The translations under genes and the position numbers were made by a program. Source: Gaiellales bacterium (lineage in GTDB: Bacteria > Actinomycetota > Thermoleophilia > Gaiellales > F1-60-MAGs149). Taken from it: a DNA stretch of 42,729 nt. Numbering within the stretch: the stretch's first letter is position 1; every line of letters begins with the position of its first letter. Below the pieces are notes generated by a model that worked only from the letters and a program-made list of their open reading frames with translations, ran no database searches and was not told the DNA's origin. The stretch lies in contig JBILWG010000003.1 of the NCBI GenBank assembly GCA_044369995.1, positions 1-42,729 of the forward strand, written 5' to 3'. Shown here in pieces: positions 12,477 to 16,500 of the stretch.

Positions 12477-14168
12477 TCAGGCGCCGTCGACCTGGGCGCG
12501 GACCCGGCCGGGCTCGAACTGCCAGCGGATCACACCGCCCACCTCCGAGCGTCGACCGCCTGCCTCGCGCAGGAACTGCGCCCAGGGCCCGGGGAAGCGC
12601 GCATCGACCAGCACCCAGGTCGTCCCGGTGAAGGCCAGGTAGCGCAGCAGCTCCTGCCGCGGGTTGGCCGGCAGCTCGTCGCGATAGAAGCCGTAGACGA
12701 CGGGGTAGGGGACGTAGCCGGCGGGAACCGCGGCCGCGCTGTAGCCCCCGGCCATCCGGTAGCGCATACGCGCGAGCGCCTGCCAGTACATGCCGTTGCC
12801 GCGGAACGAGTACGGCAGGATCAGCACGACCGCGTCGTCTGGGATGTCCGCGGTCGCGGCTCCGGAGGTGATGCCCGGTGGCGTCTGCAGGTCGGTGCGC
12901 CACAGGTCGGCACGCGGGACGGGCAGCAGGCAGAGCAGGGCGACCACGGCGAGTCCGAGCCGGGTGCCGAAGACGACCGGCAGCTCGCGCTCGCGGCGGG
13001 CGACGAAGAGGGCGGCGAGCACCGCGATGCCAAGCCAGGCGTAGACGACGATCCGCGTGGGCAGGGCCAGCCGGATCAGCGGGAGCTGGGTGAGCAGATC
13101 CCAGGGCATCACCCAGTGCGCGACGCCACCGTACGTCAGGCGGGCACCCAGCGCGAGCACGATCGAGGTGGCGATGCCGATCGCGATCACCCAGACCCAG
13201 CGCTCGTGCCGCCAGCGGATCAGGCCCGCCACGGCAACCAGGAGCAGGACCGGGCCGACGTAGCCGAGCTGCTCGGTCAGGTTGCCGGCGAACTGCAGCG
13301 ACGTGCCGCGAAAGCGCTCGCCTCCCGCCCACGTCGTGATCGTCGGCACGAGGAGGTTCTTGAGGTCGAGGGGGTAGAGGTCCGGACGGATCCGCTGGTC
13401 GATCGGATTCGGATGCAGCAGCGCCGCGATGAGCAGGGGCGAGACGATGGCGAGCGCCAGCGCGTAGCCACCTGCGATCCAGGGCAGCGCACGCAGGAGG
13501 CGGCTGCGCAGATCGTGCGGGCCGAGCACGAGCGCCGCCAGCAGCGTCAGCGCACCCACCAGCGTGGCGGTCGCCGCGACCTCGGTGAAGGTCAGGAATT
13601 GGAAGGCGATCAGGCCCGCCAGCAGCAGGAGGCCGCGGCGCGGCGGCAGGGACTGCTCGATCAGGCGCACGACCACGAGGACGATCAGCGGCAGCGTCCA
13701 GACCAGGGCCAGGTTGACGTGGTTGAGCGTCTGTCCGAGCAGGTAGGACGAGAACCCGAAGGCCCAGCCGCCGATCAGCGCGGCGAGAAGGTCGCGCGTC
13801 ACATGCCGGCACAGCAGATACGCGCTCCAAGCCGCCAAGGCGGGGGCGGCGATCGCCAGCAGGTTGTAGGAGGCAAGCGGACCGGCCAGCTGCGTCAGCG
13901 GTGCGAGCAGGAGCGCCGGTCCGGGAATCGTCGTCGCCCAGGCGAGGTTGAAGCCCATTGGCGCATCGATGCGATCGGTCAGGAACGGGGCCTGCTGGCC
14001 GGCGATGGCCTCGACCCAGTGGACGAGGGACCAGGCGAAGAAGCCCTGATCGGCCCCGAAGCTGCCGACCACGGCATCCGTCGGAGCACGGAGCCAGAAG
14101 CGACCGATCAGGACGACGGAGGCGAGCGTGTAGCCCAGCAGCACCCACAGCGGCTCGAGGCGTCGCAT
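12477..14168 (-). CDS. Polytopic membrane protein, probable GT-C glycosyltransferase (YfhO-like)
   Basis: More than 10 hydrophobic segments; D...F.WSL, P.G.NL.W.T, FGFSSY and MYWQA...Y.MAGGY motifs. TACACT -10 lies 7 nt before ATG 14168. Confidence 0.65.
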   Translation of the reverse strand: MRRLEPLWVLLGYTLASVVLIGRFWLRAPTDAVVGSFGADQGFFAWSLVHWVEAIAGQQAPFLTDRIDAPMGFNLAWATTIPGPALLLAPLTQLAGPLASYNLLAIAAPALAAWSAYLLCRHVTRDLLAALIGGWAFGFSSYLLGQTLNHVNLALVWTLPLIVLVVVRLIEQSLPPRRGLLLLAGLIAFQFLTFTEVAATATLVGALTLLAALVLGPHDLRSRLLRALPWIAGGYALALAIVSPLLIAALLHPNPIDQRIRPDLYPLDLKNLLVPTITTWAGGERFRGTSLQFAGNLTEQLGYVGPVLLLVAVAGLIRWRHERWVWVIAIGIATSIVLALGARLTYGGVAHWVMPWDLLTQLPLIRLALPTRIVVYAWLGIAVLAALFVARRERELPVVFGTRLGLAVVALLCLLPVPRADLWRTDLQTPPGITSGAATADIPDDAVVLILPYSFRGNGMYWQALARMRYRMAGGYSAAAVPAGYVPYPVVYGFYRDELPANPRQELLRYLAFTGTTWVLVDARFPGPWAQFLREAGGRRSEVGGVIRWQFEPGRVRAQVDGA

Positions 14169-14184
14169 GCAGCGGAGTGTATGG

Positions 14185-14222
14185 AAAAAGCAGAGAGCCG
14201 GGCGGTCTCCCGCCCGGCTCTC
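14185..14222 (-). terminator. Intrinsic (Rho-independent) terminator
   Basis: Perfect 13-bp stem 14193-14205/14210-14222; GAGA (GNRA) tetraloop and UGCUUUUU tail on the minus strand. Confidence 0.85.
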
Positions 14223-14319
14223 CGGGTCGAACGCTGGTATTACGCAAGCTGCGCTGCGGCGGTTCAGCCGCGGCCCCAACGCGGGCTAGGCGATTCCCTG
14301 TCGGTCCAGGGGCGCGCCC

Positions 14320-14361
14320 TTACGTGCGTCGACCTCCACTTGCCGTGCAGTCGCTAGTCAG
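14320..14361 (-). CDS. Putative 13-aa small ORF / leader peptide (MTSDCTASGGRRT), CTG start
   Basis: Perfect SD AGGAGGT (14376-14370) lies 8 nt before CTG; TAA stop at 14322-14320. Confidence 0.3.
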   Translation of the reverse strand: MTSDCTASGGRRT

Positions 14362-14432
14362 AACGGACCACCTCCTCTCCGCGGTGCCCCGAACGTACCA
14401 CGCGCAGGCGACCCGCGCCACACGGATTTCCG

Positions 14433-14996
14433 CTACTGGAAGTTCTTCCAGTACGCGCTCGGCGTGGGGCCGACCTGGCCCTGGTACTTCGACCCCAGGG
14501 CACCGGATCCGTAGGGCTTCTCCGCCGGCTGGTCGAGGTGCATGAACGACATCTGCCCGATCTTCATGTCGGGGTAGAGCGTGATCGGCAGGTTCGCGAC
14601 GTTGGCCAGCTCGAGCGTGACGTGGCCATCGAACCCGGGATCGATGAAGCCCGCGGTGGAGTGCACCTGCAGCCCGAGGCGACCGAGCGAGCTCTTGCCC
14701 TCGAGGCGCGAGACGATGTCGTCGCCGAGCGTGACGCGCTCGAGCGTGGCCCCGAGCACGAACTCGCCGGGATGCAGGATGAACGGCCCGCCGTCGTTGA
14801 TCTCGATCAGCTCCGTCAGCTCGGCCTGCTCCTGCTTGACGTCGATGTGGCCGTAGCGGCTGTTCCTGAAGACGCGGAAGCGACGATCGCAGCGCACGTC
14901 GATCGAGGCGGGCTGGATCAGCCCGTCGTCGAACGGGTCGAGGCGGATGCGACCGTCCTCGATCGCCTGGCGGATGCCGCGGTCGGAGAGAACCAT
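14433..14996 (-). CDS. dcd: dCTP deaminase
   Basis: [53 protein letters not shown] and KYQGQ.GPTPS motifs. Confidence 0.97.
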
Positions 14997-15060
14997 TGCG
15001 GCGCAGCATTGCAGGCGCGGGGGACGTGCGGGGAGGCTCCGCGACGGGTACGCTGCGGAC

Positions 15061-16500
15061 GTGAGCACCCGAGTCATCGCGCGGCGCTACACGTTGGAGG
15101 TCCCCGAGCCGAGCCGGCCGGGCGCGACCGTCTGGCGCGGGCGCGATTCGACCAACGGCGCCGCAGTGGTGGTGACGCTGCTCGACGAGCATCCTGCTGC
15201 GGACGCGACCCTGGCGGCGCTCGTGGCCGTCCGGCATCCTGCGTTGCCGGTCGTCCTCGACCATGGTGTCGATGGCGTGGCGCGCTACGTCATCACGCCG
15301 GCGCGCGCCGGGCAGACGGTCCAGGCCCGACTGCTCGGCGCGGGGAGACTGTCCGCGGTGGAGGCGGCCGAGGTTGCGGCGGGGCTGGCGGACGCGCTTG
15401 CCGCTCTGCACGCCAAGGGTCTCGTCCAGGGCGTGCTGGCGTTGACCGCGCTGGTGCAGGAGGATGATGGCCTGCTGCGCTTCGAGGACCTGGCCACCGG
15501 TGGCCTCGCCCGTCCGGCCGACCAGCCCGACGATGACATGCGCCAGCTGGCGCACGTGCTGCGCGAGCTGCTGGGGCTGGCGCCCGACGCCAATCCACTC
15601 GAGGCCGAGGGTGTGCCACCACGTCTGGCCGGGCTCCTGCAGAGCCTCGCCTCGTTCACGCCGCCCCCGGCCGCAGACGCGCGCGAGGCGTTGCGGCGCA
15701 TCTCCCGTGAGGCCACGCACGGGAGCTGGGAGCCGTTTGCGGCGACAGGACCCTCCGCTCCAGCACCGACTGCCGTCCCGCCGCCGCGCAACCGCGGGCT
15801 CAAGCTGCTGGTCGGCGCGCTCGTGGTCGTCGTGCTGGTGCTGGCCGCAGTCGTCGTGGCCGGCGTCGTCGATCGGCGCGACGCCGAACGGCGGGCAGCA
15901 GCGACGGCGCTGCCCGGTCCGATCACCACCGTGCCGGCCTCCGGGGTGGAGACCGAGCCGTTCACGCTGCCGACGGCGACCGCGACGGCCGAGACGCCCA
16001 CGACGACCGCTGCCGAGCCGGTCGGACCGAGCCGCACGCCGCAGCGCCTTCGCATCGCCACGGTCACGCCGCTTGATCCCGCCGGGGACAGCCAGGAGAA
16101 CGATGCCCAGGCGCGGTTCGCGATCGATCGCTCTTCCGCCACCGGCTGGTCGACGGAGATCTACAAGGAGGGCGCGATCGAGAGCAAGCGCGGTGTCGGT
16201 CTCGAGCTGCGCCTCGCCGCGCCTGGTCGCCTGCGGCGCGTGGTGCTGACGAGCGTGCCGGTGGGCGCCACGATCGCGGTCTACGGCGTGCGCGGTGCGG
16301 CGCCCGCGCGGGCGCCGCGCGACTGGACGCCGCTGGCAGAGCCGCGCGTGCTGAAGCGCGGCCAGTCGGTGATCCCGATCCGTCGCCGCGCGGCCCTCAC
16401 CCACGTCCTGATCTGGATCACCGGGCTTCCTGCCGTCAAGGGCGGGTATGCGGTGGCCTTCAAGGACATCCGTCTGATCGGCATCCCGACCGGCGCCTAG
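15061..16500 (+). CDS. Degenerate Ser/Thr kinase-like (pseudokinase) domain, TM helix, Thr/Pro linker and extracellular beta-sandwich domain
   Basis: Kinase scaffold [38 protein letters not shown], but VAxK, HRD and DFG are lost. [25 protein letters not shown]-terminal DP.GD..EN...AID...TGWSTE.Y. TACGCT lies 6 nt before the GTG. Confidence 0.7.

Follow-up and report, generated by a model that had tools for sequence, protein, structure and literature searches.

The element described here lies in a 42,729-nucleotide stretch of DNA (the window), which covers positions 1 to 42,729 of the forward strand of contig JBILWG010000003.1 in the assembly GCA_044369995.1 of a Gaiellales bacterium. As judged by comparison with related sequences, positions 14385–14185 of the minus strand are a single-copy, independently transcribed small RNA (sRNA) gene of about 201 nt, extending from a +1 A (14385) to the end of a U tract (14185), and this gene is a divergent member of the Ms_IGR-5 family (Rfam entry RF02471). 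The element is a variant of a known but uncharacterised family, and what is newly recognised is its ribosome-directed anatomy. A Shine–Dalgarno (SD) sequence at the 5' end (SD1) is followed by a mini open reading frame (mini-ORF), and an internal SD sequence (SD2) precedes the stop codon of this mini-ORF at a fixed distance. We lean, with somewhat better than even confidence, to the reading that the RNA is a ribosome-engaging mini-mRNA/sRNA whose fold would be opened by its own translation, acting as a ribosome-bound or ribosome-sensing regulator. A preliminary description of this DNA, made from the letters alone, took the element for an undescribed and lineage-specific RNA; it is instead a divergent homologue of RF02471, with a spread beyond the lineage. 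The most conserved parts of the RNA, namely the 5' SD sequence, the mini-ORF and the long-range helix H1, are absent from that description. All features of the RNA are on the minus strand and are given 5' to 3' in window coordinates.

The 5' end of the RNA and the 16S rRNA tail

The first 22 nt are the most conserved stretch of the RNA. They include SD1 (GGAGAGGAGGUGGUCC, 14380–14365), which is the complement of the whole single-stranded 3' tail of 16S rRNA and is nearly invariant across the family. SD1 comprises nucleotides 7–22 when C14386 is counted as 1, its first base being nucleotide 6 of the RNA as counted from the +1 A. The metagenome-assembled genome (MAG) that carries the window is without an assembled 16S 3' end, and SD1 is measured against the tail of those relatives that carry rRNA genes, in which the 3' end of the 16S gene reads GGAUCACCUCCUUUCU. 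With this tail SD1 pairs at 16 of 16 contiguous positions (G-U allowed), which is the longest such site in the 2.14-Mb genome; the next-best sites pair at 14 (one site) and 13 positions (six sites). In four of the five relatives searched, the 16S 3' end is the only place where the exact 15-mer is found; the part searched of the fifth gives no match. Allowing one mismatch adds, in each of those four genomes, a single further 15-mer, the complement of this same element.

A mini-ORF with an internal Shine–Dalgarno sequence

The mini-ORF (CUG ACU AGC GAC UGC ACG GCA AGU GGA GGU CGA CGC ACG UAA, 14361–14320) has 13 sense codons. Its start codon, CUG (14361–14359), which is UUG in most relatives, lies 9 nt after the GGAGG of SD1, and its stop codon, UAA (14322–14320), lies inside the helix P2 described below. 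SD2 (GGAGGU, 14337–14332) is found within the reading frame, 9 nt before the stop codon, and is invariant in the alignment.

The frame was followed through 159 unique sequences (alignments A1–A3), of which two were dropped for having no second GGAGG-like motif by pattern, leaving 157; one weak second hit, L100:3288-3377, is excluded from this set. In all 157 sequences no other stop interrupts the frame set by the structural stop as far back as the SD window, compared with 11 and 0 sequences for the two control frames, and the start lies 7–12 nt from the SD sequence in all 157. A canonical start codon is present in 112 of them (UUG 100, GUG 9, AUG 3), the stop codons are UAG (120), UAA (23) and UGA (14), and the length of the ORF ranges from 10 to 17 codons. 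From GAGGU to the beginning of the stop codon there are 9 nt in 51 sequences and 10 nt in 104, together 155 of the 157. An offset of 9 is found with a start-to-motif distance that is 0 modulo 3 in 40/40 sequences (lengths 21, 24, 27, 30, 33 and 42) and an offset of 10 with a distance that is 2 modulo 3 in 72/72 (lengths 26, 29, 32 and 35), counts that overstate the independent events because the sequences are related, the truer number being nearer to the roughly 10 length classes than to 112. These shifts by multiples of three are not explained by a hairpin constraint, since hairpins would give even-numbered changes. As read from the alignments, the mini-ORF is under frame selection, and its two spacings co-vary to hold the frame.

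The conservation is, on the same comparative grounds, at the level of the RNA and not of the peptide. This conclusion follows from four properties of the family, namely the clade-specific frame of the GGAGGU motif, the variable ORF length, the link between the C-terminal residues and P1, and the 45 of 157 sequences that are without a canonical start. The motif is read as S-G-G in the Gaiellales-type RNAs (for example ..ASGGARS*) and as (L)-E-V in the types of the Solirubrobacterales, Acidimicrobiia and Actinomycetia (for example ..GTLEVSGR* and ..TCEVAAS*), and the residues encoded after it vary along with the compensatory changes of P1. Within the second of these clades all four threonine codons (ACC, ACU, ACA and ACG) are found before CUG GAG GUG, which is weak evidence that keeps a small-protein reading alive.

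Covarying helices around the mini-ORF

The minimum free energy (MFE) fold of the single sequence (-112 kcal/mol, z = -3.0) contains the closing helix together with the junction and the terminator. Of 200 shuffles, 3 reach a fold as stable, and folding of the plus strand is poorer (z = -2.1). All pairings listed in the preliminary description are present on the minus strand, together with the extended -10 element TGG-TACGTT (14400–14392). The closing helix P1 is formed by GGUCGACGC (14334–14326) and GCGUUCGACC (14234–14225). It is followed by P2, in which the 5' strand (14325–14314), comprising ACGUAAG (14325–14319, containing the stop codon) and GCGC (14317–14314), faces the 3' strand (14254–14242), comprising GCGC (14254–14251) and CUUGCGU (14248–14242).

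Covariation in relatives, proposed in the preliminary description as a way of checking the fold, is strong for P1 and P2. In a set of 100 related Gaiellales-type sequences (alignment A4), 95.0% of the cells pair, compared with 31–57% when the partners are slid, and the covariation score is 0.258 against a maximum of 0.054, being reached by 0 of 500 shuffles. In P1 both sides change in five of nine pairs, and 92% of the cells pair; in P2 both sides change in three of five pairs, and 98.4% of the cells pair. Compensated versions of the GCGC/GCGC extension of P2 are seen in relatives (GACG/CGTC, AGCG/CGCT and GGCAG/CTGCC), where P2 also continues as GUAGRGGCG/CGCCYCUAC, again with compensations.

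The region enclosed by P2 had been drawn as a cloverleaf of three 16-nt hairpins, and all three are present, at 14311–14296, 14290–14275 and 14271–14256. The junction itself is found in the MFE fold, and the evolutionary record of the three hairpins differs. In the P3 hairpin (CCCUG-GACCGA-CAGGG, 14311–14296) the CCC/GGG pairs are mostly invariant and the ACC of the loop is invariant. The second hairpin (CCUAGC/GUUGGG) is contained in a segment (AAUCGCCUAGCCCGCGUUGGGG, 14295–14274) that is highly conserved within the taxonomic order and shows no compensatory changes: UAGCC does not vary, and the one base that does in GCGU[U/G/A]GGGG is uncompensated, so that this hairpin does not have the backing of covariation. 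The third hairpin (GCGGC-UGAACC-GCCGC, 14271–14256) belongs to the MFE fold and lies in a region that varies in length and sequence among relatives.

Two further helices involve the 5' end. H1 is formed between CCGC (14384–14381) and GUGG (14339–14336), the latter strand overlapping the first GG of SD2. Nucleotides 3–6 (with C14386 as 1), the 5' strand of H1, pair at 4/4 positions with the four bases that end just before the AGGU of SD2 in 216 of 224 unique sequences. At position 6 the pair is C-G in 117 sequences and G-C in 102, and the slid controls reach 4/4 in at most one sequence. H2 is a hairpin around the start codon (14366–14343), for which pairing of CCGU (14366–14363) with ACGG (14346–14343) is our assignment in the window. 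An equivalent, GGUCC:GGACC, is found in most other lineages (by RNAalifold in model R2, which is built only from nine sequences matched by RF02471), and CCG...CGG variants occur among relatives. With H1 and H2 in place, SD1 would lie in an internal loop, the start codon in the H2 hairpin and SD2 at the junction of H1 and P1. The mini-ORF crosses H1, SD2 and the 5' strands of P1 and P2.

Three other pairings were considered and set aside. A local 5' hairpin, ACCGC/GUGGU, proposed by RNAalifold, does not accommodate the G at position 6 in 102 of the 224 sequences, which pairs in H1 but not locally. A local helix GGCG/CGCC competes with the long extension of P2, which accounts for more of the compensatory changes. 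The mutual-information pair C98-G113 (C-G in 86 sequences, U-A in nine) traces to one clade.

Transcription signals and contigs from RNA libraries

The promoter (14420–14392) consists of the extended -10 element TGgTACGTT (14400–14392) and a weak -35-like hexamer, TGGCGC (14420–14415), the latter read from the sequence alone. The base at the predicted +1 position (14385) is A in 240/240 unique relatives. A TANNNT hexamer ends 5–10 nt upstream of it in 187 of these 240 sequences (at 7–8 nt in 180), compared with 0/240 in a control window 16 nt farther upstream. The intrinsic terminator (14224–14185) has a 15-bp stem and a GAGA loop (14224–14191) followed by CUUUUU, and the terminator scan returns it as a single site, against 0.2 expected. 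The start near 14385 and the end near 14185 given in the preliminary description are in agreement with these results, as are the GNRA loop and the U tail of its terminator; the stem is longer than the 13 bp given there.

Contigs from two RNA library studies cover part of the element. These contigs carry no information on strand, ends or expression level. The contig from library X1, a 182-nt record on 14183–14365, contains the sequence of the element alone, and its 3' end at 14183 fits the terminator. The contig from library X2 is a 161-nt record with a 136-nt insert on 14232–14367 between adaptor sequences. The 5' ends of the two contigs fall 18–20 nt inside the predicted transcript, just past SD1. 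It is possible that this marks a processed 5' end after SD1, at which the 30-nt difference between the two start sites reported for IGR-5 in M. smegmatis (bioRxiv 10.1101/2021.12.14.472595) also hints; it could equally result from poor coverage of transcript ends. A third contig (X3) touches only 13614–13645 and continues into unlike sequence, and is regarded as coming from another organism, and library X4 yields no contig here. No contigs are found on dcd or on the downstream gene in 13600–15100; the uncovered part proves nothing and is not used as evidence.

Relation to the Ms_IGR-5 family

No Rfam family reaches its gathering score anywhere in the window, and ARAGORN finds no tRNA or tmRNA gene in 13000–15500, in agreement with the preliminary description. 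The sub-threshold Rfam matches in 14100–14500, McaS (E 0.51), ctRNA_pGA1 (0.21), mir-937 (7.1) and the L31 leader (8.3), cover no more than the terminator hairpin or the flank and were rejected. The gathering threshold of RF02471 is 45 bits, and the element of the window is below this curated threshold.

The relation to Ms_IGR-5 emerges from reciprocal searches with two profiles, R1, a model built from the window and its relatives, and R2. RF02471 and R1 match the same places: above 45 bits RF02471 scores 164.8 at L251, 84.8 at L248, 82.1 at L243, 68.3 at L254, 67.5 at a Streptomyces griseoruber locus (L401) and 46 at L252, and below 45 bits it is found at the R1 sites L246, L253, L250 and L239. 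R2 in turn matches the window at 14301–14386 with 18.7 bits (E = 0.019), which is its sole hit there. It also matches an own-genus relative (L019, 5e-5), a relative from the order Gaiellales (L038, 6e-9), Solirubrobacterales (5e-13), a Candidatus Eisenbacteria MAG (2.6e-12) and Deinococcota (3.5e-9). Because these reciprocal profile searches pass and the curated threshold fails, the element is filed as a divergent Ms_IGR-5 variant.

The order of motifs is shared between the window, the Rfam consensus and alignments A1 and A5: a +1 A, a full SD sequence, a start codon, GAGGU, the 9-bp P1, a stop codon 9–10 nt on, CACCG and a terminator. Ms_IGR-5 (also IGR-5 or ncMSMEG15794c of M. smegmatis, listed as 'Actinobacteria sRNA') is, like the element of the window, a single-copy intergenic sRNA that starts with A. 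Its Rfam consensus begins with 5' GGAAGGAGGUGGUCC, has UUG a few bases on and a short ORF across GAGGUG, and includes a 9-bp helix GGUGnnnGC/GCnnnCACC, a CUAG stop 10 nt past GAGGU and a 3' CACCCG that is followed by the terminator. The window differs in its larger central domain, consisting of P3, the conserved 22-nt segment and an extra hairpin, in reading SD2 in the other frame and in having CUG in place of UUG. The structure stored in Rfam for Ms_IGR-5 is without P1 or H1 as found here. The defining paper is reportedly that of Li et al. 2013 (RNA). In the literature searched, no description of a function, an SD sequence or an ORF of the family is found, nor of the internal SD2 or the helices H1, P1 and P2.

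The published data on the family concern its expression and its 5' end. IGR-5 is located between MSMEG_5794 and MSMEG_5795 and is NAD+-capped, with A at its transcription start site (TSS), which lies 30 nt from the TSS reported earlier for M. smegmatis; the same report calls it 'validated but yet uncharacterized' (bioRxiv 10.1101/2021.12.14.472595). It has been detected again as ncMSMEG15794c (PMC10454040). Ribosome profiling in M. abscessus and M. smegmatis gives significant reads on MS_IGR-5 homologues (PMC4974804). The Ms_IGR-5 of S. lividans is Rfam-derived and validated by RNA-seq (PMC8079986), and that of S. avermitilis is an sRNA transcription unit (PMC8780764). The invariant +1 A of the relatives described above would be compatible with NAD capping.

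Distribution and genomic neighbourhood

The genome that carries the window has one copy. When its 216 nt are compared by BLAST with 60 relatives, full-length matches (81–98% identity) are found in 25 of the 26 other genomes of the genus. A part of about 115 nt (query 16–131, about 14385–14270) is found at 70–81% identity in 10/10 genomes of other genera of the family; among the other families of the order, 14 of 24 genomes have this part at E <= 1e-5 (f2 5/6, f3 3/6, f4 0/6, f5 6/6). Across the class, R1 gives one hit per genome in 68 of 151 genomes (f2 22/23, f6 24/26, f9 11/12, f11 7/11). It gives none in the 74 genomes of families f7, f8 and f10 together, though these are more than 90% complete and have RNase J; their lack of matches could reflect loss of the RNA or divergence past the model. 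Across the phylum 33 of 151 genomes have a hit, again one each, a tally that, alone among those given here, includes four genomes flagged unpublished (G203, G279, G285 and G314).

Two pattern scans of GTDB genomes each return at least 120 loci. The first set comes from Gaiellaceae, Gaiellales, Miltoncostaeaceae, Thermoleophilia, 'uncultured Actinomycetes', a Trueperaceae MAG and a Deinococcales MAG, and the second from Solirubrobacterales, Conexibacter, Thermoleophilaceae, Acidimicrobiia and Nitriliruptoraceae. Run on two samples of 100 such loci, R1 gives 99 and 100 matches, and R2 matches six of 101 genomes in the phylum of the Trueperaceae genome. On the strength of these profile and pattern matches, the family is present across Thermoleophilia, Acidimicrobiia, Actinomycetia-like genomes and some Deinococcota. 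When RF02471 is run on 14 control genomes, sub-threshold matches are seen in Caulobacter vibrioides and Thermus thermophilus and none in Corynebacterium glutamicum, which fits a wider, patchy spread of the architecture.

The genes around the element differ between lineages. The dcd gene is often nearby in a changing arrangement, and the membrane-protein gene downstream of the RNA in the window is linked to it only in the genus and at one further locus (L041). Pfam searches of the flanks of 24 loci from the order return dcd, a DtxR-family repressor, NifU_N, Aminotran_5/3, Rieske and epimerase recurrently, and the repressor gene is often convergent, directly after the element. This dcd/DtxR/NifU neighbourhood is lost outside the order. 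In the order Solirubrobacterales the element lies between gyrA and a DUF2277 gene, and in the Acidimicrobiia a convergent PALP gene comes next. Because the neighbours change in this way between lineages, the element is regarded as a stand-alone gene and not a leader; the earlier view of it as an independent structured RNA gene, with its own promoter and terminator, is upheld.

In the window, the downstream ORF of 563 aa has a -10 element of its own, TACACT (14181–14176), as had been pointed out before; this hexamer is conserved in the genus and lies 7 nt before the ATG (14168), which is itself 17 nt past the U tract. As far as can be judged from this arrangement, the mRNA is probably leaderless. 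No Pfam family matches this ORF at E <= 0.1, and its earlier 'GT-C-like' label is unconfirmed.

Some features of the neighbouring genes stand apart from the RNA. The DtxR/IdeR-family repressor gene adjoins the RNA gene, mostly in convergent orientation, at eight loci (L035, L038, L043, L048, L050, L051, L055 and L057), and NifU-like, class-V aminotransferase and Rieske genes are near these loci, which may be plain synteny. A link to iron or Fe-S metabolism, suggested by the DtxR-family, NifU-like and Aminotran_5 neighbours, was rejected: no iron-box-like palindrome is seen by eye in the promoters, and the neighbourhood does not persist beyond the order. The dcd ORF of the window (14433–15077, 214 aa, ATG 15077) aligns to its relatives only from about residue 23–28, and its true start is probably an internal Met near residue 27 (MVLSDRG...), as indicated by these alignments. 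In a Thermoleophilia MAG (L294:243-4097), the gyrA upstream of the element contains an intein with a LAGLIDADG endonuclease domain.

Look-alike units in other phyla

Units with a similar plan are seen in Sphingomonadales (L413, L453 and L428), Rhodobacterales (L391, L446 and L393), Pararhizobium (L399), Planctomycetota (L396), Thermoanaerobaculia (L419) and Ca. Eisenbacteria (L422, the locus with the R2 match at 2.6e-12). These units are intergenic. Each opens with an exact complement of the 16S tail, GAAAGGAGGUGAUCC, and has a start codon a few nt on and a short ORF; a further GGAGG comes 41 or 63 nt later, and then a closing helix and a terminator. No Rfam family is found at its gathering score in the eight look-alike loci searched, and R2 finds nothing at E <= 0.01 in the Thermoanaerobaculia genome or in that of Roseicyclus. 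The alphaproteobacterial look-alikes were not accepted as members of the family: R1 matches them weakly (E ~1e-3), and these loci had been pre-selected by their SD pattern.

Discussion

The anatomy of the RNA suggests how it may work on the ribosome. A 30S subunit would dock on SD1 through an anti-SD duplex of 15–16 bp. Translation of the mini-ORF would have to melt H2, H1, P1 and P2, which would make the compact fold and the translated state mutually exclusive. With the stop codon in the A site, SD2 would be positioned 6–7 nt before the P-site codon, a spacing that, judged from the stop offsets, is initiation-like and at which the anti-SD could re-pair with SD2 and hold the terminating ribosome. 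The peptide itself would not be the product that matters. Instead, although this is uncertain, the stability and the fold of the RNA would be likely to report or buffer the availability of 30S subunits, and SD1 may double as a 5' stabiliser.

Parts of this anatomy are known from other systems. In the STAB-SD of Bacillus thuringiensis cry3A, an SD sequence near the 5' end binds 30S and blocks 5'-3' decay by RNase J1 (PMC4113751). As in the window, that SD sequence pairs with the 3' end of 16S rRNA; it is, however, found without initiation in the 5' untranslated region (UTR) of a long mRNA, whereas in the window an in-frame start follows, the RNA is a 200-nt sRNA and the complementarity extends over 16 nt. 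The rnTrpL/peTrpL system of Sinorhizobium resembles the element of the window in being a small RNA with a translated mini-ORF and a role at the RNA level. SgrS, RNAIII, SR1 and Spot 42 are further dual-function sRNAs with a tiny ORF. In contrast to the window, the rnTrpL-type and dual-function sRNAs have conserved peptides or regulatory codons, and several lie upstream of the operon that they control. At the programmed frameshift sites of prfB and dnaX, a GGAGG-like element within the ORF, set a short, constant distance away from a stop or slippery codon, re-pairs with the anti-SD of the elongating ribosome. The RNA of the window differs from these in lacking a slippery sequence and any extension of the frame downstream, and its spacing (6–7 nt) is initiation-like and not strained.

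Several observations weigh against the proposed assignment and mechanism. RF02471 gives no match in 14100–14500 at E <= 10, nor in the genome at E <= 1, and the membership rests on our own models R1 and R2, the E-values of which are rough, their calibration having been shortened. Only a near-cognate start is present in 45 of the 157 sequences (CUG 24, including the window, AUC 8, ACG 7, AUU 4, AUA 2); in the window the mini-ORF opens with CUG, and some lineages may translate theirs weakly or not at all. The start codon is also inside hairpin H2, which could hinder initiation. The relatedness of the sequences behind the frame counts belongs here as well. The contigs of X1 and X2 begin at 14365 and 14367, respectively, leaving SD1 and the predicted +1 uncovered. 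RNase J (PF17770) has no matches in the MAG of the window, which is 89.8% complete. Docking of the ribosome in this organism is a prediction from the sequence.

The most serious of the alternatives, to which we assign a clearly minor share of the probability, is that the RNA is a trans-acting base-pairing or protein-binding sRNA, the 3' domain of which is the active part, with SD1 as a STAB-SD-like 30S cap and the ORF as a tolerated by-product. It would account for the position of SD1, 6 nt from the 5' end, for its length, which far exceeds what translation requires, and for the many weak or non-canonical start codons; it also has the STAB-SD precedent. RNase J, which such a cap would be directed against, is present in 149 of the 151 genomes of the class; these, however, include the families without the RNA, so that its presence does not discriminate. 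The central domain is strongly conserved within the taxonomic order (AAUCGCC-UAGCC-GCGU-GGGG and the ACC of the P3 loop), but across the family it is not: in the versions of 110–130 nt only about 20 of its roughly 100 nt are left, and hence it cannot be the shared active part. A trans-acting sRNA would, moreover, leave unexplained both the conservation of the frame (40/40 and 72/72) and the fixed distance of 9–10 nt between SD2 and the stop codon. It is less probable still that the gene is a small-protein gene, in which the effector would be the peptide of 13 residues, with the RNA structure serving only to tune its expression or stability. The strong SD sequence, the in-frame ORF and the conserved stop codon agree with it, as do the ribosome footprints on a homologue (PMC4974804) and the large clade ending in ...G-T-L-E-V-x-G-R, in which all four Thr codons occur. 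Yet the frame in which GGAGGU is read differs by clade (S-G-G or L-E-V), the length varies from 10 to 17 codons, the C-terminal residues track the compensations in P1, and the same 45 sequences do without a canonical start.

Two further readings fare worse. That of a cis-acting leader, either a riboswitch or a leader-peptide attenuator acting through the terminator on the downstream membrane-protein gene, is very improbable; an attenuator was among the proposals of the preliminary description. An aptamer-like multi-helix domain is indeed followed by a terminator and then by an ATG 17 nt past the U tract, and a short ORF ahead of a terminator is attenuator-like. The synteny contradicts it, however, since linkage of the downstream gene to the RNA is confined to the genus and one other locus, other families of the order have a convergent gene next (often of the DtxR family), and the neighbours in other orders are unrelated. 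This downstream gene also has its own TACACT -10 element, conserved in the genus, and no riboswitch family in Rfam matches. The other reading, the preliminary description's 6S/Ms1-like RNA, here an RNA polymerase binder, or a generic protein sponge, we consider the least probable of all: the RNA is an abundant-looking, structured, single-copy sRNA, but it matches no 6S family of Rfam, its fold is branched with an exposed SD sequence and ORF and is not a long rod with a central bubble, and repeated protein-binding motifs are not seen apart from the two GGAGG; nothing points to either role.

A wider version of the ribosome-engaging reading would make the RNA part of an ancient, cross-phylum class of ribosome-docking sRNAs, in which the 5' end pairs with the entire 16S tail, the mini-ORF encodes an irrelevant peptide and is translated through the helices of the RNA itself, a second SD sequence holds the terminating ribosome and the RNA gauges or buffers free 30S and anti-SD across the cell. 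This class would cover Actinomycetota, some Deinococcota and the Ca. Eisenbacteria MAG, with the look-alikes in Thermoanaerobaculia, Planctomycetota, Sphingomonadales and Rhodobacterales; we regard it as speculative and rather unlikely. If true, these RNAs would do at the RNA level what hibernation factors do, or would switch cells between translating leadered and leaderless mRNAs, and would not be classical base-pairing sRNAs.

For years Ms_IGR-5 has been in Rfam as an actinobacterial sRNA without a function, and it is now extended to Thermoleophilia, Acidimicrobiia and some Deinococcota. The distant versions reveal its core, consisting of the 5' end complementary to the anti-SD, the in-frame mini-ORF, SD2 at a fixed distance from the stop codon and the helices H1, P1 and P2. 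For Rfam this means a corrected structure and a seed that is much broader, and it turns an orphan sRNA into a hypothesis testable in laboratory strains that have the RNA, namely that the RNA works on or through the ribosome. If this is true, it bears on how 30S subunits are managed in bacteria that are rich in leaderless mRNAs.

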